From Escherichia coli (lineage in GTDB: Bacteria; Pseudomonadota; Gammaproteobacteria; Enterobacterales; Enterobacteriaceae): a stretch of 64,000 bases of DNA. A program made the translations under genes and the position numbers. The notes below the pieces were generated by a model. The model made no database searches, was not told the origin of the DNA, and was given only the letters and a program-made list of their open reading frames with translations. Positions within the stretch are counted from its first letter, which is position 1; the number at the start of each line of letters is the position of its first letter. This document shows, in pieces, positions 15,067 to 57,878 of this stretch. The stretch is from assembly GCF_050920415.1 (NCBI RefSeq), contig NZ_CP169309.1; one strand, 5' to 3'.

Positions 15067-16425
15067 ATGTCGCATAACGTTACTCCAAACACCTCTCGCG
15101 TGGAATTGCGTAAAACGCTTACGTTAGTTCCGGTTGTAATGATGGGTCTTGCCTATATGCAGCCGATGACGCTGTTTGATACATTTGGTATCGTTTCAGG
15201 CCTCACGGATGGTCATGTGCCGACAGCCTATGCGTTCGCATTGATTGCGATCCTGTTTACGGCTCTGAGCTACGGGAAGCTGGTTCGCCGCTATCCTTCT
15301 GCTGGCTCTGCATACACTTACGCCCAGAAATCCATTAGCCCGACCGTCGGCTTTATGGTGGGTTGGTCTTCTCTGCTCGACTATCTGTTCGCGCCGATGA
15401 TCAACATTCTGCTGGCGAAAATCTATTTTGAAGCTCTGGTGCCTTCCATCCCATCGTGGATGTTTGTGGTGGCGCTGGTGGCCTTTATGACCGCCTTTAA
15501 CCTGCGTAGTCTGAAATCCGTAGCGAACTTCAACACCGTCATCGTGGTGTTGCAGGTAGTGCTGATCGCGGTGATTCTGGGCATGGTTGTTTATGGCGTA
15601 TTTGAAGGTGAAGGCGCTGGTACGCTGGCGAGCACTCGTCCGTTCTGGTCTGGCGATGCGCATGTTATTCCGATGATTACCGGGGCGACAATCCTGTGCT
15701 TCTCCTTTACCGGCTTTGACGGCATCAGCAACCTGTCGGAAGAAACCAAAGATGCAGAGCGCGTGATCCCGCGTGCGATTTTCCTGACCGCGCTGATCGG
15801 CGGCATGATCTTCATCTTTGCAACTTACTTCCTGCAACTGTATTTCCCGGATATCTCTCGCTTTAAAGATCCGGATGCGTCACAGCCTGAAATCATGCTG
15901 TACGTTGCGGGTAAAGCGTTCCAGGTTGGCGCGCTGATCTTCTCCACCATTACCGTACTGGCGTCCGGTATGGCGGCGCACGCAGGCGTGGCGCGTCTGA
16001 TGTACGTAATGGGTCGTGACGGCGTATTCCCGAAAAGCTTCTTCGGTTATGTGCACCCGAAATGGCGTACTCCGGCAATGAACATCATCCTGGTTGGCGC
16101 GATTGCTCTGCTGGCAATCAACTTCGACCTGGTAATGGCTACGGCGCTGATTAACTTTGGTGCGCTGGTGGCGTTCACCTTCGTTAACCTGTCGGTTATC
16201 TCGCAGTTCTGGATCCGTGAGAAGCGTAACAAGACGCTGAAAGATCACTTCCAGTATCTGTTCCTGCCGATGTGTGGTGCGCTGACTGTAGGTGCGCTGT
16301 GGGTTAACCTGGAAGAAAGCTCAATGGTTCTGGGGCTGATCTGGGCGGCAATCGGTCTGATTTACCTGGCTTGCGTCACCAAGAGCTTCCGTAACCCGGT
16401 TCCGCAGTACGAAGACGTTGCATAA
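15067..16425 (+). CDS. plaP: Putrescine importer (APC-family amino acid/polyamine permease)
   Basis: ORF 15061..16425; start at [16 protein letters not shown], 452 aa, multi-TM. Confidence 0.9.
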
Positions 16426-16463
16426 TCTTACAAGCCGGATGACATAATCATCCGGTAAATCTC

Positions 16464-16496
16464 AAAAAGCCGGAGTTTGTCGCTCCGGCTTTTTTG
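16464..16496. terminator. Bidirectional terminator between convergent plaP and sbcB
   Basis: aaaaagccggag...ctccggctttttt. Confidence 0.75.
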
Positions 16497-16498
16497 TT

Positions 16499-17926
16499 TC
16501 AGACGATCTCTTCCGCGTACTGCCAAAGCGCTTTTAACAGCGCCACTTTCTCTTTGTCATCGGCATATTGTTGTGCCAGCATCTGCAATTCATCTGCATA
16601 GCCCTGCAAAAACTCTGGCGTGAAGACCTGGCGGCGGTGCTCCAGCCAGCGTTGCTGCTCGGCATAATCCAGCGTCCCCGGGAAGTTGCGTGCTCGATAA
16701 TTGAACAACAGCTTTTCAATCCGTTTATCAACAAAAGTGATATCCAGTGCCGGTAAATTACGCGGCTCGGTTTCAAGCACAATTTTCATTGCTGCACGAT
16801 CGGCGTCACTGAAAAAGCCATTATAAAGCTGTGCATCCACGTTATCTGAAGGCGTAAACGGTTCGGCTTCGGCGAATATCGCCACCACTTTTTCACGCAC
16901 TTGCGGATTTTCACGCAGAATTTTCAGGTTATCGAGGCAATGCTGACGATTAATTCCCAGTCGGTCGGCATCTTCCGGGCGTAGCGTATTCGCCTGGGCC
17001 AGCACCGGACATTTATTGATATGCACCAGTTTAACCGGAACGGCGGCGTTATCGCCAAGATCGGCTTTTGCGGTATATAAACGCTCGCGCAATGTGTCGC
17101 TATCCAGCTCCAGTAATGGCGAAATGTCTCCTGCCAAATCCACCATAATTACGGCATTGCGATTTTCAGGATGCCACGCCAGCGGTGCTACCCAGCTGGT
17201 ATTGCCGCGCCATGCCCCAAACATTCCGGAAACGTGAACCAGGGGTTTCATCTGCGGAACATCAATCAACGCCATCAGTTTGTGTTTATTGCGATGGGTA
17301 AAGAGATAATCAAATAGGCGTGGCTGACGCATTTTTACCAGCTTTGCCATCGCAATAGTGGCGTACACATCAGCCATCGCATCGTGGGCGTTGCTATGTT
17401 CAATACCATTCGCTTTGGTTAAATGCTCAAGGCGAAAGCTCGGTAGACCGTCATCATTTTCAGGCCAGTTTATTCCTTCCGGGCGCAGGGCATAACAGGC
17501 ACGCATAACATCCAGTAAATCCCAGCGCGAGTTATCATGCTGCCAGCTCCAGGCGTAAGGATCGTAGAAATTACGATAAAAAACGTTGCGTGTGACTTCG
17601 TCGTCGAAACGCACATTGTTGTAGCCCAGAATACAGGTCTTCGGTACGGTAAAAAGCGAGTGAATACGGGCGGCAAACGCGGCTTCGTTTTCTCCTTTCG
17701 CCCGTGCTTCCTGCGGGGTAATACCGGTAATTAATACTGCTCCAGGCTGCGGTAAATAGTCATCCGCGGGCTTGCAGTAAAAAACTTCGGGTTCGCCGAT
17801 GACGTTGAATTCGTTATCAGTGCGAATGGCTGCGAACTGTGCAGGGCGATCTAACGCGGGGTGCGTTCCAAAGGTTTCGTAATCGTGAAACAAAAAGGTA
17901 GATTGTTGCTTACCGTCATTCATCAT
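16499..17926 (-). CDS. sbcB: Exodeoxyribonuclease I
   Basis: ORF 16499..17974; start at MMNDGKQQSTFLFHDYETFG, 475 aa. Confidence 0.95.
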   Translation of the reverse strand: MMNDGKQQSTFLFHDYETFGTHPALDRPAQFAAIRTDNEFNVIGEPEVFYCKPADDYLPQPGAVLITGITPQEARAKGENEAAFAARIHSLFTVPKTCILGYNNVRFDDEVTRNVFYRNFYDPYAWSWQHDNSRWDLLDVMRACYALRPEGINWPENDDGLPSFRLEHLTKANGIEHSNAHDAMADVYATIAMAKLVKMRQPRLFDYLFTHRNKHKLMALIDVPQMKPLVHVSGMFGAWRGNTSWVAPLAWHPENRNAVIMVDLAGDISPLLELDSDTLRERLYTAKADLGDNAAVPVKLVHINKCPVLAQANTLRPEDADRLGINRQHCLDNLKILRENPQVREKVVAIFAEAEPFTPSDNVDAQLYNGFFSDADRAAMKIVLETEPRNLPALDITFVDKRIEKLLFNYRARNFPGTLDYAEQQRWLEHRRQVFTPEFLQGYADELQMLAQQYADDKEKVALLKALWQYAEEIV

Positions 17927-18134
17927 TAGGTTAAATCCGTTATTTCTGCTGTCTGCCAGAGTATCAAATATCACCGTGCTAATCAGCTTTAGCGCGACAA
18001 TTTGGCAGCGAGTGGCAACAGATCATGTCAGATAAAAATGAGATAGTAGTCACATTTTCTTGCACTTTATTCCAGCCAGTTCATAAGTATTTCCGTAAAA
18101 AGAACAGCTATTTGAAACACCTGAGGGTTTGCTG

Positions 18135-19301
18135 TTGAAACGCCGTCTTATTATTGCTGCTTCTTTGTTCGTTTTTAACTTATCGTCTGGTTTTGCGGCG
18201 GAAAACATTCCTTTTTCACCTCAGCCTCCAGAGATTCATGCCGGGTCCTGGGTACTGATGGATTACACCACCGGTCAGATTCTCACCGCGGGTAATGAGC
18301 ATCAACAGCGCAATCCCGCCAGCCTGACAAAGCTGATGACGGGCTATGTTGTGGATCGCGCTATCGATAGTCATCGCATTACGCCAGATGATATTGTCAC
18401 CGTGGGGCGCGATGCGTGGGCGAAAGATAATCCGGTGTTTGTCGGTTCTTCACTGATGTTTCTGAAAGAGGGCGATCGCGTATCGGTACGTGATTTAAGC
18501 CGTGGTTTAATTGTGGATTCCGGAAATGACGCTTGTGTTGCACTGGCTGACTATATTGCCGGTGGGCAACGGCAGTTTGTTGAAATGATGAACAACTATG
18601 CCGAGAAGCTGCATCTCAAGGATACGCATTTTGAAACAGTGCATGGTCTGGATGCACCTGGCCAGCATAGCTCGGCTTATGATTTAGCTGTGCTTTCTCG
18701 CGCTATCATCCACGGCGAGCCCGAGTTTTATCATATGTACAGTGAGAAAAGCCTCACCTGGAACGGTATTACCCAGCAAAACCGTAACGGGTTATTGTGG
18801 GATAAAACCATGAATGTTGACGGCCTGAAAACGGGTCATACTTCTGGTGCCGGGTTTAATCTCATTGCTTCGGCTGTGGATGGGCAGCGTCGTCTCATTG
18901 CAGTGGTAATGGGGGCTGACAGTGCAAAAGGTCGTGAGGAAGAGGCAAGAAAATTACTGCGTTGGGGGCAACAAAACTTTACTACAGTGAAAATTTTGCA
19001 CCGTGGGAAAAAGGTCGGGACGGAACGTATCTGGTATGGCGATAAAGAAACTATCGCCCTGGGAACGGAACAAGAGTTCTGGATGGTGCTACCTAAAGCC
19101 GAAATTCCACATATCAAAGCCAAATATACCCTTGATGGTAAAGAACTCACTGCGCCAATTAGCGCCCATCAGCGGGTAGGGGAAATTGAACTTTACGACC
19201 GTGATAAACAGGTGGCGCACTGGCCGCTGGTTACCCTGGAATCTGTCGGGGAAGGCAGCATGTTTTCCCGCCTGAGTGATTATTTCCACCATAAGGCCTG
19301 A
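18135..19301 (+). CDS. dacD: D-alanyl-D-alanine carboxypeptidase (PBP6b)
   Basis: ORF from 18129; likely TTG start giving MKRRLIIAASLF, 388 aa; SxxK motif region present. Confidence 0.9.
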   Translation: MKRRLIIAASLFVFNLSSGFAAENIPFSPQPPEIHAGSWVLMDYTTGQILTAGNEHQQRNPASLTKLMTGYVVDRAIDSHRITPDDIVTVGRDAWAKDNPVFVGSSLMFLKEGDRVSVRDLSRGLIVDSGNDACVALADYIAGGQRQFVEMMNNYAEKLHLKDTHFETVHGLDAPGQHSSAYDLAVLSRAIIHGEPEFYHMYSEKSLTWNGITQQNRNGLLWDKTMNVDGLKTGHTSGAGFNLIASAVDGQRRLIAVVMGADSAKGREEEARKLLRWGQQNFTTVKILHRGKKVGTERIWYGDKETIALGTEQEFWMVLPKAEIPHIKAKYTLDGKELTAPISAHQRVGEIELYDRDKQVAHWPLVTLESVGEGSMFSRLSDYFHHKA

Positions 19302-19387
19302 CCTTTCTTTTGCAGCAGACTGGCAGGAGTGCGAGTCTGCTCGCATAATCAACACTCATTCCTTGTGGTTTTAATATTGCAACTATG

Positions 19388-19403
19388 CTGTATATAAAAA
19401 CAG
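19388..19403 (+). promoter_or_regulatory. LexA (SOS) box upstream of sbmC
   Basis: CTGTATATAAAAACAG matches CTGT-N8-ACAG, 17 bp upstream of sbmC ATG. Confidence 0.8.
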
Positions 19404-19419
19404 TATTAATGGAGGCGTC

Positions 19420-19893
19420 ATGAACTACGAGATTAAGCAGGAAGATAAACGTACCGTTGCAGGTTTCCATCTTGTTGGCCCGTGGGAGCAGACGGTAAAG
19501 AAAGGTTTTGAGCAGTTGATGATGTGGATAGATAGCAAAAATATTGTGCCGAAGGAGTGGGTTGCTGTCTATTACGACAATCCAGATGAAACACCCGCCG
19601 AAAAATTACGCTGCGACACCGTCGTGACGGTGCCGAATAACTTTACGCTCCCTGAAAACAGTGAGGGCATCATTCTGACAGAAATTTCAGGTGGTCAGTA
19701 TGCGGTGGCGGTGGCTCGTGTAGTCGGTGATGATTTTGCTAAACCCTGGTATCAGTTCTTTAATAGCCTCTTGCAGGACAGTGCTTATGAAATGTTACCA
19801 AAGCCCTGCTTTGAGGTTTATTTGAACAATGGCGCGGAAGAGGGGTACTGGGATATCGAAATGTATGTTGCGGTGCAGCCAAAACATCACTAA
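19420..19893 (+). CDS. sbmC: DNA gyrase inhibitor (GyrI-like)
   Basis: 157 aa, [25 protein letters not shown]. Confidence 0.93.
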
Positions 19894-20091
19894 TTCATCT
19901 CAGGGCGGTGTGTTAACGCGATGACCACTCTTTTTTTGAAAGCGAAAAGAGTAAGATGCGCCTTTCAAATTTTTCGCTCCTGCCGGGAAATTACACTGTT
20001 CCCGGTATGTCCGTCGGATAATTCAGAGGCGCGCCTTCTGGCCGACAGATGTGTTATGAGCGCTTTTAATCTTCATTAACGGAGTTTCTGC

Positions 20092-21150
20092 GTGCGTGCC
20101 GATAAGTCATTAAGCCCGTTTGAAATCCGGGTATACCGCCATTACCGCATTGTGCATGGTACTCGGGTCGCGCTGGCATTCCTGCTCACTTTTCTCATTA
20201 TCCGCCTGTTTACTATCCCGGAAAGCACCTGGCCGCTGGTCACCATGGTGGTGATTATGGGGCCAATCTCGTTCTGGGGTAACGTTGTCCCTCGCGCATT
20301 CGAACGTATTGGCGGTACGGTGTTGGGGTCGATTTTAGGTCTTATCGCTCTGCAACTGGAGTTAATCTCGTTACCGCTGATGTTAGTCTGGTGCGCGGCG
20401 GCTATGTTTCTTTGCGGTTGGCTGGCGCTGGGCAAGAAACCGTATCAAGGTTTATTGATTGGGGTGACGCTGGCAATTGTTGTTGGTTCCCCGACAGGTG
20501 AAATTGATACGGCGTTATGGCGAAGCGGCGATGTGATCCTCGGCTCTTTACTGGCAATGTTGTTTACCGGTATCTGGCCACAACGGGCGTTCATCCACTG
20601 GCGCATTCAACTGGCGAAAAGTCTGACCGAGTATAATCGGGTCTATCAATCTGCATTCTCACCGAACTTACTCGAACGCCCACGTCTGGAAAGCCATCTA
20701 CAAAAACTCCTGACCGATGCCGTGAAAATGCGTGGGCTGATTGCGCCCGCCAGCAAAGAAACCCGTATTCCCAAATCGATATATGAAGGTATCCAGACCA
20801 TTAATCGCAATCTGGTTTGTATGCTGGAGTTGCAAATCAATGCATACTGGGCCACGCGCCCCAGCCATTTCGTGTTATTGAACGCGCAAAAACTTCGTGA
20901 TACCCAGCACATGATGCAGCAAATACTGCTGAGCCTTGTTCATGCGCTGTACGAAGGTAATCCGCAGCCGGTTTTTGCCAATACGGAAAAATTGAACGAT
21001 GCTGTGGAAGAGCTGCGTCAGTTGCTCGATAACCACCATGACCTGAAGGTCGTGGAAACACCAATCTATGGCTATGTGTGGCTGAACATGGAAACGGCAC
21101 ATCAGCTTGAGTTGCTATCGAATCTGATTTGCCGGGCCTTGCGCAAATAA
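20092..21150 (+). CDS. yeeA: Inner membrane protein YeeA (FUSC-like family)
   Basis: 352 aa, multi-TM, recognised sequence. Confidence 0.85.
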   Translation: MRADKSLSPFEIRVYRHYRIVHGTRVALAFLLTFLIIRLFTIPESTWPLVTMVVIMGPISFWGNVVPRAFERIGGTVLGSILGLIALQLELISLPLMLVWCAAAMFLCGWLALGKKPYQGLLIGVTLAIVVGSPTGEIDTALWRSGDVILGSLLAMLFTGIWPQRAFIHWRIQLAKSLTEYNRVYQSAFSPNLLERPRLESHLQKLLTDAVKMRGLIAPASKETRIPKSIYEGIQTINRNLVCMLELQINAYWATRPSHFVLLNAQKLRDTQHMMQQILLSLVHALYEGNPQPVFANTEKLNDAVEELRQLLDNHHDLKVVETPIYGYVWLNMETAHQLELLSNLICRALRK

Positions 21151-21751: not shown

Positions 21752-21934
21752 TTAGCGATAGCCTTCTTCTGTATGCAGCAAGGCAAAAAGTTCTGCAACT
21801 CCATTGTTATTAACCGCACTGGTTACTAACACATTGTGCGCTCCAGCTTCCCGTAACCAACTTTTCACCAAAGATATTTGTTCCATACTGGCTAAATCTG
21901 CTTTGGTGACTACTCCAATGACCGGGCGATTCAT
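21752..21934 (-). pseudogene. yoeF: Remnant of a PduV/EutP-like small GTPase gene (yoeF-like fragment)
   Basis: 60 aa ORF ...[25 protein letters not shown]... resembles the C-terminus of PduV/EutP-family proteins; no full-length partner frame. Confidence 0.45.
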
Positions 21935-22519
21935 TGACGAGGTAAAGCCTGGCGAAAAAGGTGACCACGGTGCGTCCGCATTAAGTACCAGCGCGATAAT
22001 GTCTGCTTCGCAGGCACTGACTAACAGAGCACTGTAGAGGCTGCGGTTTTATCGGTGAGGACTGGCAGCAAGATTTCCAGCCTTTTGACGGTGGGCCTGT
22101 GCAATCGTTATCAGATTCGTATAGCGATTATTCAGTGCTGCTATTGATAGCAGCTGAAAGCGAGATATCCGTACCAGAATAGCTCCCTCATTCTGAGGGA
22201 ACGACGGTAATTTTGATTGCAGAACACAATGCCCGTTTGCTGAATGGTCCGGCTGGTGGGGCTGTAGCATTAATCCATTATTTGAATGAAATCAGTCATG
22301 CCAGAGAAACCGCTGTCAATGACGCATTTTGTCGGACGTTAACACGAGGAAGTCTGGCTATTCCGCAATGCCATCTTCTTTCGTAATGGATTGAGAATGC
22401 TGGATTTTTAATTATATTACGCGCAGTATTAATCGCGTAAATGTTTTGCGGTCAGCAACAGTGGGGGAACCATTGTTCTGTTCAATGAATACCATCATAC
22501 AATTGAATCAGGAGTCGGT

Positions 22520-24896: not shown

Positions 24897-24957
24897 AAAC
24901 GAAAAGTCTGATAAAAGCTATACTTATCGGATAGTATTCGCGACTTAGGAAAGGGAC

Positions 24958-27208
24958 ATGATGCGTCGTGTAAATATTTTTTGCTCATTTGCTCTACTTT
25001 TTGCCAGCCATAATAGCCTGGCGGTAACTTATCCATTACCTCCAGAGGGTAGCCGTTTAGTGGGACAGTCGCTTACTGTAACTGTTCCTGATCACAATAC
25101 CCAGCCGCTGGAGACTTTTGCCGCACAATACGGGCAAGGGTTAAGTAACATGCTGGAAGCGAATCCGGGGGCTGATGTCTTCTTACCGAAGTCTGGCTCG
25201 CAACTCACCATTCCGCAGCAACTGATTTTGCCCGCCACTGTTCGTAAAGGGATTGTGATTAACGTCGCTGAGATGCGTCTTTATTACTACCCGCCAGACA
25301 GTAATACTGTGGAAGTCTTTCCTATTGGTATCGGCCAGGCTGGGCGAGAAACCCCGCGTAACTGGGTGACTACCGTTGAACGTAAACAAGAAGCACCAAC
25401 CTGGACGCCAACGCCGAACACCCGGCGCGAATATGCGAAACGAGGGGAGAGTTTGCCCGCATTTGTTCCTGCGGGGCCTGATAATCCCATGGGGCTGTAC
25501 GCGATTTATATTGGCAGGCTATATGCCATCCACGGTACCAATGCCAATTTTGGTATTGGGCTCCGGGTAAGTCAGGGCTGTATTCGTCTGCGCAATGACG
25601 ATATCAAATATCTGTTTGATAATGTTCCTGTAGGTACTCGTGAACCGCCCCGGAAATCCTGGAGACTAAACTTCCTGAGAAAGAGGTAAACAGGATGACT
25701 AAAAATACTCGTTTTTCCCCCGAAGTCCGTCAACGCGCAGTTCGTATGGTTCTGGAAAGTCAGGGCGAATATGACTCACAATGGGCGGCAATTTGTTCCA
25801 TTGCTCCAAAGATTGGCTGTACGCCAGAGACTCTGCGTGTCTGGGTTCGCCAGCATGAGAGGGATACCGGGAGCGGTGATGGTGGGCTCACCACCGCTGA
25901 ACGTCAGCGTCTGAAAGAGCTGGAACGTGAAAATCGTGAACTGCGCCGCAGTAACGATATCCTTCGCCAGGCTTCCGCTTATTTTGCGAAGGCGGAGTTC
26001 GACCGCCTCTGGAAAAAATAATGCCACTGCTGGATAAGCTGCGTGAGCAGTACGGGGTCGGACCGGTATGCAGTGAACTGCATATTGCCCCGTCAACGTA
26101 TTACCATTGTCAGCAGCAGCGGCATCATCCTGATAAACGCAGTGCCCGTGCGCAGCGCGATGACTGGCTGAAGAGAGAGATACAGCGCGTATACGATGAA
26201 AATCATCAGGTGTACGGTGTGCGTAAAGTCTGGCGTCAGTTGTTACGGGAAGGAATCAGGGTGGCCAGATGTACAGTGGCGCGCCTCATGGCGGTTATGG
26301 GACTTGCCGGTGTTCTCCGGGGTAAAAAGGTCCGCACTACCGTCAGCCGGAAAACCGTTGCCACAGGTGACCGCGTAAACCGTCAGTTCGTGGCAGAACG
26401 TCCTGACCAGCTGTGGGTGGCTGATTTTACTTACGTCAGCACATGGCAGGGCTTCGTCTATGTGGCGTTCATCATTGATGTGTTTGCCGGATACATCGTG
26501 GGGTGGCGGGTCTCATCGTCTATGGAAACGACATTCGTGCTGGATGCGCTGGAGCAGGCGTTGTGGGCCCGTCGTCCGTCTGGCACCATCCATCACAGCG
26601 ATAAAGGCTCTCAGTATGTGTCACTGGCCTATACGGAGCGACTAAAAGAAGCAAAACTGCTGGCATCAACAGGGAGTACAGGCGACTCGTATGACAACGC
26701 GATGGCTGAGAGCATCAATGGTCTTTACAAAGCGGAGGTAATACACCGTAAGAGCTGGAAAAACCGTGCAGAAGTGGAACTGGCCACACTCACGTGGGTG
26801 GACTGGTATAACAATCGACGATTGCTGGGAAGGCTGGGCCATACTCCTCCGGCAGAAGCAGAAAAAGCTTATTATGCTTCCATCGGAAACAATGATCTGG
26901 CAGCCTGAGTTCACAGATAAAACACTCTCCAGGAAACCCGGGGCGGTTCAACTCGTGTACAAATTATTGATCAGCCAGTGAAATACACAACGGAACCGGA
27001 TGGATCAAAGTGGCTGGAAGTTCATGAGCCACTGTCGCGCAACCGTGCGGAATATGAGTCAGACCGAAAAGTGCCTTTGCCAGTAACGCCATCTTTGCGG
27101 ACGTTCATTAACGGGCAAGAAGTTGATGTGAATCGCGCAAATGCTGCATTGCAGCGCCGATCAGGAATGCCTGTGCAAATTAGTTCTGGTTCAAGACAGA
27201 TGTTTTAA
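24958..27208 (+). pseudogene. ldtA: L,D-transpeptidase LdtA (ErfK) interrupted by an IS element; 5' part 24958..25640, 3' part 26951..27208
   Basis: N-terminal ORF ends ...DNVPVGTR at the IS boundary; the reading frame resumes exactly after the IS as TRVQIIDQPVKYTTEPDGS...SGSRQMF. Confidence 0.9.
25641..26950 (+). mobile_element. IS3-family insertion sequence, IS629/IS1203-like, 1310 bp, with orfA 25695..26021 and orfB 26021..26908
   Basis: Terminal inverted repeats TGAACCGCCCCGG...CCGGGGCGGTTCA; orfA (108 aa, HTH) and orfB (295 aa, DDE transposase) overlap at an A-rich slippery region; flanked by direct repeat ACTCG. Confidence 0.92.
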
Positions 27209-27230
27209 GAGCGTTGTTAATTAGAAAGCA

Positions 27231-27258
27231 AAAAGCCTGCTCGAAAGCAGGCTTTTTT
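27231..27258. terminator. Hairpin terminator between ldtA and asnV
   Basis: aaaagcctgctcgaaagcaggctttttt. Confidence 0.75.
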
Positions 27259-27263
27259 GAATT

Positions 27264-27339
27264 TGGCTCCTCTGACTGGACTCGAACCAGTGACATACGG
27301 ATTAACAGTCCGCCGTTCTACCGACTGAACTACAGAGGA
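27264..27339 (-). tRNA. asnV: tRNA-Asn (GUU)
   Basis: 76 nt; reverse complement begins TCCTCTGTAGTTCAGTCGGTAGAACGGCGGACTGTTAATCC and ends ...GAGGAGCCA. Confidence 0.95.
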
Positions 27340-27592
27340 ATCGTGTGAACGGGGCGCATATTAATGGCAGTGCATGGTGATGTCAAAGGGTGAAATGCAT
27401 TTTTTTGTTTGTTTGCTGCCAATTTCGACAAAATGGTGAGCTTTCAATCTTTTTGGTAATGAACCATCGTGGTGCATACCTTTCTGTCTTGGGGCAGAGA
27501 ACGCGAGTTCTAATAAAAAGATCGAGTGACAAAACTATCATAATCTCTTATTTGACCGTTGGTTAGCTTGCATATCAACACAAAATTAAAAC

Positions 27593-27608
27593 TGGCAAGT
27601 ATCTTGCA
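27593..27608 (+). promoter_or_regulatory. Sigma-54 type promoter (-24 GG / -12 GC) upstream of nac
   Basis: TGGCAagtatcTTGCA with canonical GG-N10-GC spacing, about 55 bp upstream of nac ATG. Confidence 0.7.
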
Positions 27609-27663
27609 ATCTGGTTGTAAGTAATGGCGGCACTTGGGCCGATTCTTATAAACCGGAGGCAAC

Positions 27664-28581
27664 ATGAACTTCAGACGCCTGAAATACTTCGTAAAAATTG
27701 TAGATATTGGTAGCCTGACCCAGGCTGCTGAAGTGTTGCATATCGCGCAACCCGCGCTCAGCCAGCAGGTTGCCACGCTGGAAGGTGAGTTGAATCAACA
27801 ACTTTTGATTCGCACAAAACGGGGCGTTACGCCAACAGACGCCGGAAAAATTCTCTATACCCATGCGCGGGCCATTTTACGTCAGTGTGAGCAGGCCCAA
27901 CTGGCGGTGCATAACGTTGGTCAGGCATTATCGGGGCAAGTCTCGATTGGCTTTGCACCAGGAACAGCGGCCTCATCTATCACCATGCCTTTATTGCAGG
28001 CGGTTCGCGCTGAATTCCCGGAAATTGTTATTTATCTCCATGAAAATAGCGGTGCTGTGCTCAACGAAAAACTGATAAGCCACCAACTCGATATGGCAGT
28101 AATTTATGAGCATTCTCCTGTGGCTGGTGTTTCCAGTCAGGCTTTGCTGAAAGAAGATCTTTTCCTGGTAGGAACGCAAGATTGCCCGGGGCAAAGCGTT
28201 GATGTTAATGCTATTGCGCAAATGAACCTCTTTCTCCCCAGCGATTACAGTGCCGTTAGACTTCGTGTTGATGAGGCTTTTTCCCTACGGCGACTCACGG
28301 CAAAAGTCATTGGTGAAATTGAGTCTATTGCCACGCTTACCGCAGCAATTGCCAGCGGCATGGGCGTTGCAGTATTACCCGAATCGGCCGCGCGTTCGTT
28401 ATGTGGCGCAGTAAACGGATGGATGTCACGCATTACCACACCTTCAATGAGTCTCTCTTTGTCATTAAATTTACCCGCCAGAGCGAACTTATCACCACAG
28501 GCGCAAGCAGTGAAAGAGTTGTTAATGTCAGTGATGAGTTCTCCAGTGATGGAAAAAAGGCAGTGGCAATTGGTGAGCTAA
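27664..28581 (+). CDS. nac: Nitrogen assimilation control protein (LysR family)
   Basis: 305 aa, MNFRRLKYFVKIVDIGSLTQAAEVLHIAQPALSQQ. Confidence 0.93.
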   Translation: MNFRRLKYFVKIVDIGSLTQAAEVLHIAQPALSQQVATLEGELNQQLLIRTKRGVTPTDAGKILYTHARAILRQCEQAQLAVHNVGQALSGQVSIGFAPGTAASSITMPLLQAVRAEFPEIVIYLHENSGAVLNEKLISHQLDMAVIYEHSPVAGVSSQALLKEDLFLVGTQDCPGQSVDVNAIAQMNLFLPSDYSAVRLRVDEAFSLRRLTAKVIGEIESIATLTAAIASGMGVAVLPESAARSLCGAVNGWMSRITTPSMSLSLSLNLPARANLSPQAQAVKELLMSVMSSPVMEKRQWQLVS

Positions 28582-28682
28582 GCGTTATATCGGGATGGAA
28601 TAAGATGCGGGTTTTTATTATTTGTTATGCCGGGCATTAAACTTTAACAATAACGTGATATCTGAACTGCCCGGAGTTTACC

Positions 28683-29633
28683 GTGAATTTCCAACAACTA
28701 AAGATAATCCGCGAGGCTGCACGTCAGGATTACAACCTGACAGAGGTTGCGAATATGCTTTTTACCTCACAGTCAGGCGTCAGCCGTCACATTCGGGAAC
28801 TGGAGGATGAACTTGGCATCGAAATATTTGTTCGACGAGGTAAGCGACTGCTGGGCATGACTGAACCGGGCAAAGCATTACTGGTCATTGCAGAACGTAT
28901 TCTGAATGAAGCCAGTAATGTTCGTCGGCTTGCAGACCTGTTTACCAACGATACGTCTGGCGTTCTCACTATTGCAACGACGCATACTCAGGCACGTTAT
29001 AGCTTGCCTGAGGTCATTAAAGCTTTTCGCGAACTTTTCCCGGAGGTTCGGCTGGAGCTAATCCAGGGTACACCACAGGAAATTGCGACGTTGTTGCAAA
29101 ATGGCGAAGCTGATATTGGTATCGCCAGCGAGCGTTTAAGTAATGACCCGCAGCTCGTCGCCTTCCCGTGGTTTCGTTGGCACCATAGTTTGCTTGTTCC
29201 ACTCGATCATCCCTTGACGCAAATTATACCGTTGACGCTGGAATCAATAGCGAAGTGGCCGTTAATCACTTACCGACAGGGGATTACGGGGCGCTCACGT
29301 ATTGATGACGCATTTGTCCGCAAAGGTTTGCTGGCAGATATTGTATTAAGTGCGCAGGATTCTGATGTCATTAAAACCTATGTTGCACTCGGGCTGGGGA
29401 TTGGATTAGTTGCCGAACAATCCAGCGGTGAACAAGAGGAAAAGAATTTAATCCGTCTGGATACGCGGCATCTTTTCGATGCTAATACTGTCTGGTTGGG
29501 ACTCAAGCGAGGACAACTTCAGCGTAACTATGTCTGGCGCTTTCTGGAACTTTGTAATGCAGGACTGTCAGTTGAGGATATCAAGCGCCAGGTGATGGAG
29601 AACAGTGAAGAGGAAATTGATTATCAGATATAG
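28683..29633 (+). CDS. cbl: CysB-like LysR-family regulator of sulfonate utilisation
   Basis: 316 aa, MNFQQLKIIREAARQDYNLTEVANMLFTSQSGVSRHIRELE. Confidence 0.93.
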   Translation: MNFQQLKIIREAARQDYNLTEVANMLFTSQSGVSRHIRELEDELGIEIFVRRGKRLLGMTEPGKALLVIAERILNEASNVRRLADLFTNDTSGVLTIATTHTQARYSLPEVIKAFRELFPEVRLELIQGTPQEIATLLQNGEADIGIASERLSNDPQLVAFPWFRWHHSLLVPLDHPLTQIIPLTLESIAKWPLITYRQGITGRSRIDDAFVRKGLLADIVLSAQDSDVIKTYVALGLGIGLVAEQSSGEQEEKNLIRLDTRHLFDANTVWLGLKRGQLQRNYVWRFLELCNAGLSVEDIKRQVMENSEEEIDYQI

Positions 29634-29634
29634 C

Positions 29635-29663
29635 AAAAAGCCCGCTATAAAAGCGGGCTTTTC
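29635..29663. terminator. Hairpin terminator between cbl and asnU
   Basis: aaaaagcccgctataaaagcgggctttt. Confidence 0.75.
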
Positions 29664-29670
29664 AGAAATT

Positions 29671-29746
29671 TGGCTCCTCTGACTGGACTCGAACCAGTGA
29701 CATACGGATTAACAGTCCGCCGTTCTACCGACTGAACTACAGAGGA
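29671..29746 (-). tRNA. asnU: tRNA-Asn (GUU)
   Basis: 76 nt, identical tRNA-Asn sequence on minus strand. Confidence 0.95.
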
Positions 29747-29906
29747 ATCGCTGTTGAGGCACATCTTAACGGCGAAAAATCTTTTGTCAAACCCGATTTT
29801 TAAATTTCCCAACTGTTTGCCGTTTCTATCAACAGTTTGTTGCATTTGCAGACAATTTGTTGGCGAAAATCTTTGCAGCTTTGCTGATTCTCCCTCATCA
29901 TTTGAA

Positions 29907-31394
29907 ATGTGGTTTCACTTTTTGCAATTAAGGTCGGCTTTGAATATCTCCTCTGCTTTACGCCAGGTTGTTCACGGCACTCGCTGGCACGCCAAACGCA
30001 AGAGCTACAAGGTGTTGTTCTGGCGCGAGATAACCCCGCTTGCTGTTCCTATCTTCATGGAGAATGCCTGTGTCCTGTTGATGGGTGTTTTGAGTACTTT
30101 TCTGGTCAGCTGGCTGGGAAAAGATGCGATGGCCGGCGTGGGATTGGCGGACAGCTTCAATATGGTCATTATGGCTTTTTTTGCAGCTATCGATCTTGGT
30201 ACTACTGTCGTTGTGGCATTTAGTCTCGGTAAGCGGGATCGACGACGAGCGAGGGTGGCGACGCGGCAGTCATTGGTGATCATGACGTTGTTTGCCGTAC
30301 TGTTGGCAACGCTTATTCATCATTTTGGCGAACAAATTATTGATTTCGTCGCAGGTGATGCCACGACAGAAGTTAAAGCACTGGCGTTGACTTATCTGGA
30401 GCTGACGGTACTCAGTTATCCAGCAGCTGCCATCACTTTGATTGGTAGCGGGGCACTTCGTGGTGCAGGGAATACGAAAATACCGCTACTGATTAACGGT
30501 AGCCTGAATATTCTTAATATTATTATTAGCGGCATATTGATTTACGGCCTTTTCTCCTGGCCGGGACTGGGATTTATCGGGGCTGGGTTGGGGTTAACCA
30601 TTTCTCGTTATATTGGCGCAGTGGCAATTTTGTGGGTGCTGGCGATTGGTTTTAATCCTGCGCTAAGGATTTCGTTAAAGAGCTATTTTAAACCGCTGAA
30701 TTTTAGCATTATCTGGGAAGTCATGGGGATTGGCATTCCTGCGAGTGTCGAATCAGTATTATTTACCAGTGGTCGGTTATTAACCCAAATGTTCGTTGCC
30801 GGGATGGGGACCAGTGTTATTGCCGGGAATTTTATCGCGTTTTCAATTGCGGCTCTTATCAACTTACCCGGAAGTGCGCTCGGCTCTGCTTCTACAATCA
30901 TTACAGGCCGAAGGTTGGGGGTAGGGCAGATAGCGCAAGCAGAGATTCAGTTGCGGCATGTGTTCTGGCTGTCCACTCTTGGATTAACGGCCATCGCCTG
31001 GCTAACGGCTCCCTTTGCTGGGGTTATGGCATCGTTTTACACCCAGGATCCACAGGTTAAACATGTCGTTGTGATTCTGATTTGGCTAAATGCTTTATTT
31101 ATGCCTATTTGGTCTGCCTCATGGGTGCTACCCGCTGGATTTAAGGGGGCTCGCGATGCCCGTTACGCCATGTGGGTTTCTATGTTGAGCATGTGGGGTT
31201 GCCGGGTTGTAGTCGGTTATGTGCTGGGAATCATGCTTGGCTGGGGTGTGGTTGGTGTCTGGATGGGAATGTTTGCCGACTGGGCTGTGCGGGCCGTGCT
31301 GTTTTACTGGCGCATGGTTACTGGACGTTGGCTGTGGAAATACCCTAGACCTGAGCCGCAAAAGTGTGAAAAAAAGCCAGTTGTGTCGGAATAA
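29907..31394 (+). CDS. yeeO: MATE-family multidrug/flavin efflux transporter
   Basis: ORF 29754..31394 (546 aa); start placed at internal Met MWFHFLQ (495 aa); 12-TM MATE-like; start uncertain. Confidence 0.8.
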   Translation: MWFHFLQLRSALNISSALRQVVHGTRWHAKRKSYKVLFWREITPLAVPIFMENACVLLMGVLSTFLVSWLGKDAMAGVGLADSFNMVIMAFFAAIDLGTTVVVAFSLGKRDRRRARVATRQSLVIMTLFAVLLATLIHHFGEQIIDFVAGDATTEVKALALTYLELTVLSYPAAAITLIGSGALRGAGNTKIPLLINGSLNILNIIISGILIYGLFSWPGLGFIGAGLGLTISRYIGAVAILWVLAIGFNPALRISLKSYFKPLNFSIIWEVMGIGIPASVESVLFTSGRLLTQMFVAGMGTSVIAGNFIAFSIAALINLPGSALGSASTIITGRRLGVGQIAQAEIQLRHVFWLSTLGLTAIAWLTAPFAGVMASFYTQDPQVKHVVVILIWLNALFMPIWSASWVLPAGFKGARDARYAMWVSMLSMWGCRVVVGYVLGIMLGWGVVGVWMGMFADWAVRAVLFYWRMVTGRWLWKYPRPEPQKCEKKPVVSE

Positions 31395-31494
31395 ACGACA
31401 AAGTGCAGATTATTTCAGCAAACGATTTCAAATTTAAAAAACAGGCTTTGACATTAAGGATGGGCATCGCTAATATTCGCCTCGTTCTCACGAT

Positions 31495-31570
31495 TCCTCT
31501 GTAGTTCAGTCGGTAGAACGGCGGACTGTTAATCCGTATGTCACTGGTTCGAGTCCAGTCAGAGGAGCCA
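31495..31570 (+). tRNA. asnW: tRNA-Asn (GUU)
   Basis: TCCTCTGTAGTTCAGTCGGTAGAACGGCGGACTGTTAATCCGTATGTCACTGGTTCGAGTCCAGTCAGAGGAGCCA. Confidence 0.95.
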
Positions 31571-31577
31571 AATTTTA

Positions 31578-31607
31578 GTTTTGAGACATCTCTATAAGTC
31601 TCAAAAC
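31578..31607 (+). terminator. Hairpin terminator after asnW
   Basis: gttttgagacatctctataagtctcaaaac. Confidence 0.7.
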
Positions 31608-32023
31608 AGTTAAAAAATAAAAATTATTTTTACCCGGTTACTTTGTAAAAAAGTGACCGGGTTTTTTGATTTCTGTGTTTCGTGCGCTTAATCGAGTCTC
31701 ACGCTTCAGTGAGCAAATTGCCCCTCCCCAACAGACATCACGATTCGCAAGGTCAAAAACTCTGTTCCATGAAGTACCGTACAAAGATAAAGAGAAAAAT
31801 GCCTTATGCGGGATGTCGCTATCGCGTCTTTATCGGGAAACTATGCGTAATTGCCACTTTGCCTTCTGTAATCAGAAAAAGAAGAACTGGAATTTTAATA
31901 AATATTATTTCTCTGGGACCGGTATTTTTATAATCAATATGACGAGTTGAATATTATGTTTATTATAAGATTTATATGAAATTAAAGAAATCTGCCATAA
32001 AGACAGATTTCTTTAAAATATAA

Positions 32024-32740
32024 TTAGAGATTTGCGACGTTATGATAAACTTTTTGAACATCGTCGTCATCTTCAAGGGCATCAACAAGCCCTTCAAAGA
32101 TTTCTAAATCTTCTGGGGAAAGCTCAACTTCAGATTGAGCAATCATTTCTAATTCTGTTGTTGAGAACTCAGTGATTCCAGCTGCTTTTAGAGCCGCGAT
32201 TCCTTTATGAAGGTCAGTTGGTTCAGTATAAATAACAATGTTACCTTCTTCTTCGGTCACATCGCGAACATCAACTTCAGCTTCAAGCAAAATTTCAAAA
32301 ATATGGTCCGGGTCTGTCCCTTTAAATACAATCACACCCGTATTGTCAAACATATAGCTGACAGAACCTGCCGCTCCGATATTGCCACCTTTTTTATTGA
32401 AAATTGTGCGAACGTTAGCAATTGTACGGTTAACATTGGAAGTCAATGTCTCGGCGATAATCATTGAGCCATTTGGACCAAAGCCTTCATAACGTCCCTG
32501 CACGAACGTTTCATCTCCGCCGCCTTTGGCTTTATCAATTGCTTTATCAATAACGTGCTTTGGAACTTGTGCCTGCTTCGCACGTTCAATAACGAATTTT
32601 AAAGATGTGTTTAATTCTGGATCGGGTTCACCTTGTTTGGCAGCAGCATAGATTTCTACACCGAATTTTGCATAAATTTTAGACGTTGCACCGTCTTTAG
32701 CCGTTTTTTTAGCAACAATATTGGCCCATTTACGTCCCAC
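32024..32740 (-). CDS. yeeN: YebC/PmpR-family probable transcriptional regulator
   Basis: 238 aa, [27 protein letters not shown]. Confidence 0.9.
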
Positions 32741-33081
32741 TGGAATGATCTCCTCGAAAATTTATTTACATTACTGGTAAATCGTTAACATGCGTTAATT
32801 CGACATATTATATCATAACAGGAAAAATCTCGTCTATTAGAAATAAAAATATTCTAAATCCATAATCTTATATTTAATCTCATAAAAACTAATGTTGTTG
32901 GCGGATTTTTTTATAATTGTGTTTTGAAAGCATACTTGCTTTTAATATATGGAAATCATTAAGGCTATAATAAAACTTGTATCCGCCCCAGGAAGCAAAC
33001 AGCCTGCTTTATTGCAGGCTATTTGCTGGATGACTTACTAAATCCTTCACATCTATTCCTGATAAAAAGGAACAGAACTTA

Positions 33082-34536
33082 TTACCGGAACGGCGGTTCA
33101 TTAAAGGTTCGTAATTTACGTGAATGCAGTCGGTCGCCTTCTGCGCGCAGCAAATCGATCGCACGAATGCCAATTTGCAGGTGTTCGGAAATAGCGCCTT
33201 CATAAAAACGGTTAGCCTGACCGGGAAGTTTAATCTCACCATGCAACGGTTTATCTGAAACACACAGTAGTGTCCCGTATGGCACGCGGAAACGATATCC
33301 TTGCGCGGCAATAGTTGCACTTTCCATATCAATTGCTACGGCCCGGCTTAAGTTAAAACGAAGTGCAGAAGCTGAGTAACGTAATTCCCAGTTCCTGTCA
33401 TCTGTGGTTACCACAGTGCCAGTACGTAGCCGCTGTTTAACTTCCTCTCCGGGCCTGCCGCTGACTAACTTGGTAGCGTCATAAAGCGCACGTTGCACTT
33501 CAGCAATGCTCGGAATAGGAATATCGGGCGGCAGTACCGCATCAAGAACGTGGTCATCGCGTAAATAAGCGTGTGCAAGTACATAATCTCCAATGGCCTG
33601 GCTTTCACGTAAGCCACCACAGTGACCAATCATCAACCAGACATCCGGGCGCAGCACCGCCAGATGATCGCAGATGGTTTTAGCATTTGACGGTCCCACG
33701 CCAATATTCACCAGAGTAATACCCTGACCATCGGCGGTAATTAAATGCCATGCTGGCATCTGGTGTTTTTTCCATGCAAGGTCGGAAATGGCTTCTTCTG
33801 GCGCTTCGGTTTCGGCGGTGATCCAGTTCCCGCCAGCACAAGAAAGGGCAATGTAGGGACTATCAGGGTCGAGGATCTGGCTGCATCCCCAACGAACGAA
33901 TTCATCCACATAACGTGTGTAGTTGGTAAACAAGACGAACGGCTGAAAATGTTCAACTGGCGTACCGGTATAATGGCGCAACCGCGCGAGGGAGAAATCG
34001 ACGCGGCGCGCATCAAAATGCGATAGCGGGGAGAATTCAGTTGGATGATAAATGCCGTCTGCAGTTTCATCGCCAATTTGCGCCAGTTCTGTTGTCGGGA
34101 AGTAGCGAGTTAACCCAGCGCTCATTGAGCGATCAAGTGTCAATTCAGAGCCATCGATGACATAAGGATAAGGGATTTCATGCTGCGAGGGTTGCACCGA
34201 GATATGCGCACCATAATCCTGATACAGCAACGTAAGTTGTTCATTCAGATACGAACGAAAGAGAGTAGGGCGAGTAATCGTGGTGGTGTAGCTGCCTGCG
34301 TGAGTAAAACGACCAAATGCGCGCGTTTTGGGGGGATTTGTTGTGCTACCGTCCCAGGTTACGGTCAGTGATGGATAGACAAAAAGACCTTCTTTACGGG
34401 CATTTTCATCAGGTAATTCGCCACTTTTAATATAGTTGCCAATGGCATTGCGTAAAGCGACTACAGATTGCTCATACAGCGCGTCGAGTTTTTCCAGTGC
34501 CTGAGCTGGGGTCAGACCGGAGCCCTTATTATTCAT
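33082..34536 (-). CDS. amn: AMP nucleosidase
   Basis: ORF 33082..34692; start at MNNKGSGLTPAQALEKLDALYEQS, 484 aa. Confidence 0.93.
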   Translation of the reverse strand: MNNKGSGLTPAQALEKLDALYEQSVVALRNAIGNYIKSGELPDENARKEGLFVYPSLTVTWDGSTTNPPKTRAFGRFTHAGSYTTTITRPTLFRSYLNEQLTLLYQDYGAHISVQPSQHEIPYPYVIDGSELTLDRSMSAGLTRYFPTTELAQIGDETADGIYHPTEFSPLSHFDARRVDFSLARLRHYTGTPVEHFQPFVLFTNYTRYVDEFVRWGCSQILDPDSPYIALSCAGGNWITAETEAPEEAISDLAWKKHQMPAWHLITADGQGITLVNIGVGPSNAKTICDHLAVLRPDVWLMIGHCGGLRESQAIGDYVLAHAYLRDDHVLDAVLPPDIPIPSIAEVQRALYDATKLVSGRPGEEVKQRLRTGTVVTTDDRNWELRYSASALRFNLSRAVAIDMESATIAAQGYRFRVPYGTLLCVSDKPLHGEIKLPGQANRFYEGAISEHLQIGIRAIDLLRAEGDRLHSRKLRTFNEPPFR

Positions 34537-34637
34537 GTGTGTCTCCTGTTCCATACAATTACCGCACTTCCGATAGTATGTCACAGGAATGTGAAACAAA
34601 AGTGTAAGGCGAAGATCGGATGATCTTCGCCTGACTA

Positions 34638-35954
34638 TCAAGCGTGTTGATTGTCTTTCATCAACAAAGCGGTCATTGCGGAAATCAGGCATCCAGCCAG
34701 TAAATAAATGGCGACGCTATGCCAGTTCCCGGCAAAGTAAGTGATAAGTGCAGCGGCAATGAAAGGTGTAAATCCACCGCCAACCACACTGGCAACCTGA
34801 TATCCGACTCCAGCGCCACTATAGCGATAACTGGCACCAAACATTTCGGTAAACATCGGTTGTTGCACGCACACCACCATGTCATGCGCAATGTTTGCCA
34901 GCATTATGGAGAAGAAAACTATCCAGAAAATAGATTGTGCTTCAAGCGCCATAAAGAAAGGAAATGCGCTCAACGTTCCGATTAACGCACCTGTGATATA
35001 AACTCTGCGGCGACCAAAACGATCGGCAAGCCAGGCAAAACAGGGAATTGTCAGACAGCTTAGTCCACCTACCAGCAAACCGATATTAAGGAAAAGTTCG
35101 CGCGGTAACCCCATATTTTGGGTTGAATAGTTAAGCGCAAAGGCGGTAACGATGTACATCGTCAGCAACTCGCACAGTCGTAGCGCAATAATCTTCAGAA
35201 AAGCACCGGGATGTCGTAACAGTGCTTCGATAACCGGGATGCGTTTTTGCGCTGCCGCTTGATTATGTTGCTGTTGTTCAAATTCCGCGGACTCCTCCAT
35301 GCCATTACGCACCCACAATGCTCCCAGCACCAGTACGATGCTAAACAGGAAAGGAATACGCCAGCCCCAGCTTAGAAACTGTTCGTCAGTCGTCATCATA
35401 CTGATCAGTGAAACCAGTCCGGTCGAAAGCAGTAAACCTACTCCGTAGCCAACTTGTACACCGCTACTGTAAAAGGCTTTTTTATTTTTCGGTGCACTTT
35501 CAACGGAAAGTAACGCCGCGCCTCCCCATTCGCCGCCGACGGCAAATCCCTGAATGGCACGCAGTGTCACCAGTAAAATGGGGGCCCACCAACCTATGGT
35601 CGAGAAGGAAGGAAGAATGCCAATCAAGGCTGTCGCGATGCCCATCATCCAGACGGTCAGCATTAACATGCGCTTACGTCCCAGTCGGTCGCCAAAGTGA
35701 CCGAAAATGACACCGCCGAGCGGACGGAACAGGAATCCGACACCAAAGGTGGCAAATGCGGCGAGCGTTCCCATAGCCGGGCTTACTTGCGGGAAAAACT
35801 CGCGATTAAACACCAGTGCGGCGGTAATGCCATAGAGTAAAAAATCATACCAGTCGACGACGGCACCAGCGAAACTGCCTAACGCAGCTCGTCGGGCGCG
35901 ACTTAACGAAAGCGTCCCTTCATCGGGACGAGTGGAGATGAGCGTGGAGTCCAT
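34638..35954 (-). CDS. shiA: Shikimate transporter (MFS)
   Basis: 438 aa, MDSTLISTRPDEGTLSLSRARRAALGSFAG, 12-TM MFS. Confidence 0.93.
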   Translation of the reverse strand: MDSTLISTRPDEGTLSLSRARRAALGSFAGAVVDWYDFLLYGITAALVFNREFFPQVSPAMGTLAAFATFGVGFLFRPLGGVIFGHFGDRLGRKRMLMLTVWMMGIATALIGILPSFSTIGWWAPILLVTLRAIQGFAVGGEWGGAALLSVESAPKNKKAFYSSGVQVGYGVGLLLSTGLVSLISMMTTDEQFLSWGWRIPFLFSIVLVLGALWVRNGMEESAEFEQQQHNQAAAQKRIPVIEALLRHPGAFLKIIALRLCELLTMYIVTAFALNYSTQNMGLPRELFLNIGLLVGGLSCLTIPCFAWLADRFGRRRVYITGALIGTLSAFPFFMALEAQSIFWIVFFSIMLANIAHDMVVCVQQPMFTEMFGASYRYSGAGVGYQVASVVGGGFTPFIAAALITYFAGNWHSVAIYLLAGCLISAMTALLMKDNQHA

Positions 35955-36259
35955 AATGATCCTGTTTGTACTGTCTTTTTATAATTAGTATGGAAAAGGT
36001 AACTCACATTGCCGTCGATCTATAAACGAACCTTATGAGACTACCTCGACAGAGCGCATCTGCAAATGATTTTATGGCTGATTAACGGCAACATGAAAAA
36101 TTCGATGGAAGATGAAATCGCAGGAGTTGCATAAGGATTGAGCAGAGCACCTACAGTTTTGAGATATGAAACATAAAAGTCCGCATATGCACAAAATTGC
36201 ACCCTGATGATTCTGATAGACTGCATTGCATTTTAACCAGTAGGGAGGCGAGGTTAGGT

Positions 36260-37330
36260 ATGTTTTTAGCATCATTGTTGAGACGTATTGCATTTAGTTA
36301 CTACGATTATAAAGCTAATAATTTCAATATTGAAAAAACAGAGTTTGTTGTCATCCATATTCCCGATCAGATTGGCGATGCTATGGCTATCTTTCCAGTG
36401 ATTCGGGCGCTTGAATTGCATAAAATCAAGCATCTTTTAATTGTTACTTCGACAATTAATTTAGAAGTCTTTAATGCGCTCAAACTTGAACATACTAAAT
36501 TAACATTAGTCACAATGACTATGCAGGATCACGCAACATTAAAAGAAATAAAAGATTTAGCGAAGAACATAACACAGCGATACGGTACGCCGGATCTTTG
36601 TATAGAGGCGATGCGTAAAAAGAACCTGAAAACGATGTTATTTATCAGTCAGTTGAAAGCAAAAACGAATTTTCAGGTTGTCGGTTTAACCATGAAGTGC
36701 TATTCCCCTTTGTGTAAGAACGCCTCCCGGATGGATCAACATCTCCGGGCTCCCGTACCCATGACATGGGCGTTTATGATGCGTGAAGCGGGTTTTCCTG
36801 CAGTCAGGCCAATATATGAATTACCATTAAGCGAGCAGGTAATAAATGAAGTACGTGAGGAATTGTGCACTTTAGGATCTTACATTGCGCTTAATTTAGA
36901 TGGCAGCGTGCAGGAACGCACATTTTCGTTATCAGTAGCTGAGAAACTCATCGCCAAAATTCAAAGTGATAATGATATGCCAATAGTCATTGTTCATGGA
37001 CCAAAAGGGGAAGATAAAGCCCGGAAATTAGCGGGTTGTTATAATAATGTCTACCGGCTATCCTTATCACCCTCGATTAAACGTTCAGCAGCAATCATAA
37101 AAGATGCTTATATCGCAATAACCCCTGATACCTCAATATTACATATGGCAAGTGCCTATAATACCCCCGTCGTTGCAATTTATGCTGATTACAAAACGCG
37201 GTGGCCTGCGATGGCAGATATCTCGGAGTCAGTGGTCGTTGGGCAAAAAATTGATCATATAAGTTTGGATGAATTCGGAAAGGCGCTAAAAAGTGCTTTG
37301 GAGAGAGTATGTGTCAGTACTTACGTATAG
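36260..37330 (+). CDS. yeeL: Glycosyltransferase family 9 (heptosyltransferase-like) protein, apparently intact
   Basis: ORF 36197..37330; start at MFLASLL with GGAGG RBS; C-terminal ...ITPDTSILHMASAYNTPVVAIYADY... typical of GT9. Confidence 0.7.
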   Translation: MFLASLLRRIAFSYYDYKANNFNIEKTEFVVIHIPDQIGDAMAIFPVIRALELHKIKHLLIVTSTINLEVFNALKLEHTKLTLVTMTMQDHATLKEIKDLAKNITQRYGTPDLCIEAMRKKNLKTMLFISQLKAKTNFQVVGLTMKCYSPLCKNASRMDQHLRAPVPMTWAFMMREAGFPAVRPIYELPLSEQVINEVREELCTLGSYIALNLDGSVQERTFSLSVAEKLIAKIQSDNDMPIVIVHGPKGEDKARKLAGCYNNVYRLSLSPSIKRSAAIIKDAYIAITPDTSILHMASAYNTPVVAIYADYKTRWPAMADISESVVVGQKIDHISLDEFGKALKSALERVCVSTYV

Positions 37331-37706
37331 AGGGTAATGCCGATCTATGCTGAACAGGGGACATTAATACCCTGAGGTTGGTCAATCACCACAAAAAAAG
37401 CCTTTGAATCAAAGCAATACTCACCGAATAATAAGGCAACCTGAACTTAAATCCCCGTTAACTGCCATACATTATTATGACTTGCACTGATGTAATTAGC
37501 TAAACATTATCGTGATTTGACTAAATAGCAAAAATGATAGCTATTAAAAATAGCTCATATACTTTGTTTCCCGCTGCCGTAGAATAGATGGTCCTTCCAT
37601 GTTCAAGCATTTATTCAAAAAAAGGGGGCTCGACTGTCTTCAGATAAACAGAGAGGGATTGTAAAGTCGAGTGCCCCTAATGGAGCACTCTATAAAAAAT
37701 CAACAA

Positions 37707-45695
<7,989 letters not shown>

Positions 45696-46107: not shown

Positions 46108-46129
46108 AGAATTTGGCTCCTCTGACTGG
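46108..46129. repeat. 21-bp direct repeat of the 3' end of tRNA-Asn (distal att site of the islet)
   Basis: gaatttggctcctctgactgg is identical to 54382..54402 (3' end of asnT plus 5 bp). Confidence 0.85.
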
Positions 46130-57844: not shown

Positions 57845-57878
57845 GGCCGGATAAGGCGCTCACACCGCATCCGGCAGG
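57845..57878. repeat. REP element
   Basis: gggccggataaggcgctcacaccgcatccggcag. Confidence 0.6.

Follow-up and report, generated by a model that had tools for sequence, protein, structure and literature searches.

The tRNA-Asn genes of Escherichia coli are published integration targets of the pks (colibactin) island and of the high-pathogenicity island (HPI, yersiniabactin) (PMC8209727), and a chromosome that carries several identical copies raises the question of which of them are occupied and which still stand empty. We addressed this question in a 64-kb stretch of an E. coli chromosome (contig NZ_CP169309.1; the whole stretch of 64,000 nucleotides is referred to as the window), in which ARAGORN identified four 76-nt tRNA-Asn(GTT) genes together with serU at 55454-55543. 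Names were assigned by synteny with annotated K-12 MG1655, whose gene order is ldtA-asnV-nac-cbl-asnU-yeeO-asnW-yeeN ... yeeJ-asnT-mtfA: asnV has ldtA and nac as its neighbours, asnU has cbl and yeeO, asnW has yeeO and yeeN, and asnT has mtfA and yeeJ, with the window running as the reverse complement of the K-12 map. The four genes, asnV (27264-27339, minus strand), asnU (29671-29746, minus strand), asnW (31495-31570, plus strand) and asnT (54387-54462, minus strand), are mutually identical over 76 of 76 alignment columns, and the coordinates, names and identity given for them in an earlier note on this DNA were thereby confirmed. As detailed below, the attachment (att) sites of asnV, asnU and asnW are very probably unoccupied and lie in the standard asnV-nac-cbl-asnU-yeeO-asnW segment in its K-12 (non-inverted) orientation.

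Empty attachment sites at asnV, asnU and asnW

Each of the three genes is a full-length tRNA-Asn that carries at its 3' end the same 16-17-nt core, CCAGTCAGAGGAGCCA(A), as asnT. The empty attB sites span 27260-27279 at asnV, 29667-29686 at asnU and 31555-31574 at asnW. Window positions 26951-37428 align to K-12 as a single block with 95.5% identity, and a base-level alignment of 26951-32100 contains only three 1-bp indels, none of which falls at a tRNA 3' end. The comparison of 3' flanks that the earlier note proposed as a check thus returned flanks at all three genes that are collinear with K-12 apart from 1-bp indels, and the resemblance to the MG1655 region (b1977, b1984, b1986, b1989) extends to gene order, orientation and tRNA sequence.

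A search for att repeats gave the same picture. The 17-mer CCAGTCAGAGGAGCCAA occurs at the four tRNA-Asn 3' ends and at 46113-46129 in the window, where 0.1 matches would be expected by chance. Relaxed scans for degenerate copies across the 64 kb, which allowed 5 mismatches in 20, 7 in 25 or 2 in 14 positions, added no site beyond these five, so that the extra partial repeats for which the earlier note suggested looking near each tRNA were not found even at 5 mismatches in 20. The sole extra copy of the att core (46109-46129) pairs with asnT, and none lies downstream of the asnV, asnU or asnW 3' ends. Using the full pks-island integrase of strain PBP5 as a tblastn query against the window, we obtained a single real match, which lies beside asnT (54055-54225; residues 1-57, 77% identity, E = 1e-24); no integrase remnant was detected near asnV, asnU or asnW, all other matches of this query having E values above 2.

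Annotation by the Prokaryotic Genome Annotation Pipeline (PGAP), with which Pfam agrees, places only core genes (nac, cbl, yeeO, yeeN and ldtA) around the three tRNAs, together with an insertion sequence (IS) and the ldtA gene that it splits. The earlier description of these flanks as terminators and core genes only therefore applies to asnU and asnW and fails at asnV, where the IS interrupts ldtA. The GC profile between 27 and 32 kb shows no foreign-looking block; one bin with a GC content of 0.37 was considered as foreign DNA and rejected, as it falls on core DNA made up of yeeN and the AT-rich sequence around it. Within 24900-32800, an Rfam scan returned the tRNAs and the ALIL pseudoknot of the IS and nothing else that was accepted, while a match to manA-II (35 bits, the gathering score being 100) and others at E > 0.05 were discarded as chance.

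We further asked how common the empty state is among 5,426 complete E. coli genomes, using short queries centred on each tRNA 3' end and an 80% coverage criterion. The asnT query was taken from K-12, and a joint three-site query was rejected because asnV lies too near its end for this criterion to detect an insertion. The uninterrupted asnU junction was recovered from 5,177 genomes (95.4%), that of asnW from 4,979 (91.8%) and that of asnV from 4,664 (86.0%); the uninterrupted K-12-type asnT junction was present in 2,668 (49.2%). These counts indicate that the empty state is the norm at asnV, asnU and asnW and that asnT is the most often disrupted of the four sites. The non-contiguous counts of asnV and asnW overlap, because the inversion found in pks-positive B2 strains breaks both junctions together, and they are upper bounds on true occupancy.

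Occupied examples illustrate what an insertion at these sites looks like and bear out the view that asn tRNAs are insertion targets in E. coli. In SF-088, cbl is separated from the remainder of the asnU locus by an element that resembles an integrative and conjugative element and has genes for a MobQ relaxase and a type IV pilus, and the cbl-side match stops 24 nt into the tRNA sequence, as expected of an att repeat left beside cbl. In PBP5, a tyrosine recombinase and clbS-clbK adjoin a tRNA-Asn upstream of yeeO, and the two outer tRNA-Asn genes bracket an inverted nac-cbl-asnU-yeeO segment (15792-20100 of the PBP5 locus), with the outcome that pks lies on the ldtA side and the nac-flanked tRNA beside the yeeN spacer; HPI genes are found beyond yeeJ, where asnT would be. 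Both patterns were described by Auvray et al. 2021 (PMC8209727), who also report the non-inverted asnV-asnW orientation for pks-negative strains. The 4,307-bp span from asnV to asnW (27264-31570) is the region of that inversion and is non-inverted here.

Collectively, the att repeats, the integrase search, the collinearity with K-12 and the population junctions uphold the claim that asnV, asnU and asnW are unoccupied and that asnT alone carries an islet. The 3' end of each of the three genes (CCAGTCAGAGGAGCCA plus AATT) would constitute an intact, free attachment site of a type that HPI, pks and related islands enter by means of their P4-type integrases, and each gene could still be able to accept an island. 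The empty configuration at the three sites is ordinary and already known, being textbook or published knowledge.

The occupied site at asnT

In this strain asnT appears to be the only tRNA-Asn site that has been used, and the 8.25 kb found there form an islet with an exact 21-nt repeat at either end. The islet (46130-54381, minus strand; 8,252 bp between the repeats) is absent from K-12. Its attR (46109-46129, minus strand) is the direct repeat CCAGTCAGAGGAGCCAAATTC, which matches the asnT 3' end at 54382-54402, the attL repeat, exactly over 21 nt, and the DNA beyond attR aligns with the sequence that directly adjoins asnT in K-12. The islet and its direct att repeat, as put forward in the earlier note, are thus real. 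Genes within it encode a LysR regulator, a cysteine hydrolase, HypE-like and HypF-like proteins, a HAD hydrolase and an MFS transporter, a content that looks like a small biosynthetic or modification cluster. The asnT-adjacent P4-type integrase is left with its N-terminal 57 codons (54055-54225), and abutting it on the other strand is an N-terminal fragment of a second integrase (53923-54060); PGAP marks both as partial pseudogenes. The loss of all but the first 57 codons of its integrase probably leaves the islet immobile at its present site. It is also rare, at least 80% of it being present in 15 of the 5,426 genomes.

The islet shares features with both well-known asn tRNA islands. The pks island of B2 strains targets the same identical asn tRNA 3' ends at asnW, asnU or asnV (PMC8209727), and the remnant at asnT resembles the pks integrase over the residues given above, and the attL arms of the islet and of pks align strongly as well, at a z of about 117 in local alignment. 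Unlike pks strains, the window is without pks genes, leaves the three sites unused and keeps the segment non-inverted, whereas that of PBP5 is inverted. HPI resembles the islet in its integration at asnT but differs from it in content, since the islet has hypE/hypF-like, HAD, MFS and LysR genes and is without ybt, irp and fyuA.

The earlier note had offered asnV, asnU and asnW as in-window empty-site controls for the asnT repeat. They serve this role for the extent of the tRNA-derived core but not for the flanks, as they have only 20 nt (CCAGTCAGAGGAGCCAAATT, through ...CCAAATT) in common with the asnT repeat before diverging, asnV also sharing the 21st base. The empty asnT allele of K-12 is the better, proper control for the flanks.

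Alternatives to an empty reading

Several observations weigh against the conclusion that the three sites are simply empty: an IS transposase gene lies within 313 bp of asnV, local divergence at the ldtA 3' end and upstream of nac shows that recombination has acted beside this tRNA, and 'empty' itself takes K-12 and most E. coli as its reference, so that an ancient remnant fixed species-wide is conceivable. The most immediate of these concerns is the IS, an IS3-family (IS629/IS1203-like) element of 1,310 bp inside ldtA (25641-26950, plus strand). It contains orfA (25695-26021, plus strand; 108 aa, HTH_Tnp_1) and orfB (26021-26908, plus strand; 295 aa, rve (DDE)), both assigned by Pfam, and an ALIL frameshift pseudoknot (25976-26092; Rfam, 120.9 bits), and its ends are 25-nt terminal inverted repeats, TGAACCGCCCCGG. 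Inverted repeats, an orfA/orfB pair with a frameshift signal and a target-site duplication are thus all present, as in the IS3 family, and the element length, the sizes and domains of its two open reading frames, the pseudoknot and the repeats are those of IS629/IS1203, with matching copies in other genomes annotated 'IS3-like element IS1203 family'. It departs from the listed IS1203-family copies in its left 300 bp, which are only about 94-96% identical to them, and PGAP calls its transposase 'frameshifted' rather than a product of programmed frameshifting.

If this element had arrived by tRNA-directed integration, or were what remains of an island, asnV would have to be counted as occupied, and the position of an IS3-family transposase 313 bp from the asnV 3' end, in an unusually divergent surrounding allele, might be read in this way. 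We consider this extremely unlikely. The IS is complete, with inverted repeats of its own, and it is flanked on both sides by an ACTCG duplication that lies within the ldtA frame; removing the IS restores that reading frame, which is currently cut into a 5' fragment of 228 codons with the YkuD catalytic domain (24958-25640, plus strand) and a 3' fragment of 85 codons with the Ldt_C domain (26951-27208, plus strand; Pfam). The IS and asnV are separated by 313 bp, and this interval consists, as it does in K-12, of the normal 3' end of ldtA and the terminator. Furthermore, the ldtA-IS junction occurs in 1 of the 5,426 genomes, namely this one, and other strains have ldtA alleles, annotated as intact, with 99.7% identity to this one across a 305-bp comparison; the unique junction and these intact, near-identical alleles together point to a recent, strain-specific transposition. 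A foreign gene of the kind that the earlier note would have taken to speak against empty sites does therefore lie near asnV, in the form of the IS transposase, but it belongs to a transposon in ldtA and not to a tRNA insertion. On the reading of empty sites, an IS629/IS1203-like element jumped into ldtA as a separate event, inactivating the gene and leaving the att site of asnV untouched, given that the intervening 313 bp are normal. The divergent allele itself (26951-27700), which covers the ldtA 3' end, the asnV flank and the region upstream of nac, is rare: most E. coli are 91.6-93.2% identical to it, 3 of the 5,426 genomes reach at least 99% identity, and 100-bp bins compared with K-12 drop to 79-91%. 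It is probably the product of mosaic recombination in this polymorphic part of the chromosome, which lies near rfb, gnd and his. That it is instead a recombination scar, dating from the gain or loss of an island at asnV through homologous exchange of the island's flanks, strikes us as unlikely, although if it were true the 'empty' asnV site would record past occupancy.

The other two alternatives concern DNA that has been overlooked or lost. A very old, fully degraded island remnant fixed in E. coli would most plausibly reside in the 453-bp spacer between asnW and yeeN (31571-32023), which is long, AT-rich towards yeeN and devoid of annotated features, and whose first 40 nt past asnW look similar to the asnT attL arm on inspection. 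When scored by local alignment against shuffled sequence, however, this resemblance is at chance level, with a z of 1.8 between the spacer and the asnT attL arm and 0.9 between the spacer and the pks arm, in contrast to the value of 117 for the two arms themselves. In addition, the spacer holds no integrase-like translation and no second att core, its only match in a phage collection is one 58-nt stretch of a Salmonella record, it contains no Rfam family above threshold, and it is single copy in 5,414 of the 5,426 genomes. We therefore rejected the spacer as an island remnant and treat it as core intergenic DNA, single copy species-wide, and an old remnant at any one of the three sites seems very unlikely. 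Alternatively, the emptiness could be an artefact of assembly, in which an island was collapsed or left out owing to the identical tRNA repeats; four identical 76-nt repeats within 27 kb and in both orientations could mislead an assembler. Such an artefact is extremely unlikely here, as a 76-nt repeat is far below long-read length, the window agrees in every position with the record of a closed, complete chromosome, and K-12 is collinear with the region, as are independent complete genomes in their thousands. An 11-kb stretch that we tested was matched in full at 100% by one complete genome record only.

Local organization, neighbouring features and significance

The sequences immediately around asnV, asnU and asnW look like those of intact single-gene tRNA units, each with a TTGACA-type promoter-like site about 20 nt upstream and a terminator-like hairpin downstream. 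For asnV, the sigma-70-like promoter (27358-27386, minus strand; TTGACA-17-TAATAT) and a hairpin 6 nt past the tRNA 3' end (27230-27257, minus strand), which also faces the ldtA stop codon, would define such a unit. For asnU, the corresponding features are a predicted promoter at 29763-29790 (minus strand; TTGACA-16-TAAGAT) and a hairpin with a T-run, read directly from the sequence, that lies between the asnU 3' end and the cbl stop (29636-29662, minus strand) and is paralogous to the asnV terminator. A candidate promoter of asnW (31448-31476, plus strand; TTGACA-17-TAATAT), like the other two a consensus match only, is paired with an intrinsic-terminator-like hairpin at 31632-31662 (plus strand), which is preceded by a weaker one at 31579-31606. 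The 3' terminators of asnV (27227-27263) and asnU (29632-29670) are related to each other (z = 8 in a local alignment), with about 92% identity that continues for some 37 nt beyond the tRNA, and the 3' flanks of asnW and asnT are unrelated to them. This pattern of sharing suggests a common origin of asnU and asnV in a duplication that took in the terminator.

The core genes between the tRNAs were identified by annotation and Pfam: nac (LysR family; 27664-28581, plus strand) and cbl (LysR family; 28683-29633, plus strand), which ends 37 nt from the asnU 3' end, lie between asnV and asnU, and yeeO (MATE exporter; 29907-31394, plus strand) lies between asnU and asnW. Elsewhere, the window differs from K-12 MG1655 in the IS in ldtA, the asnT islet and the absence of the CP4-44 prophage beyond cobU, and it is about 4.5% divergent at the nucleotide level, with more divergent patches. 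The place of CP4-44 between tmaR (yeeX) and cobU (21754-22388) holds only EutP/PduV and cobalamin-biosynthesis pseudogene remnants. Within 36260-45695, the homologue of yeeL (a family 9 glycosyltransferase), a pseudogene in K-12, is intact, and the yeeJ homologue encodes 2,662 aa with a central part that is 70-86% identical to its K-12 counterpart. The serU site also appears to be unoccupied, with yodB next to it as in K-12, and an IS2 copy lies between zinT and msrQ (about 57742-58970).

Taken alone, the finding that this strain shows the common empty configuration at asnV, asnU and asnW carries little weight. The least ordinary features of the region lie outside the three sites, namely an islet at asnT that few genomes share, an IS insertion peculiar to this genome and the divergent allele at the ldtA 3' end and upstream of nac; the strain-specific inactivation of ldtA by the IS is a minor phenotypic note. 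Nonetheless, the comparison fixes the boundaries of the asnT islet at the 21-nt repeat, and the data on occupancy of all four asn tRNA sites in 5,426 genomes provide a background against which the asnT islet and the spread of the HPI and pks islands can be set.

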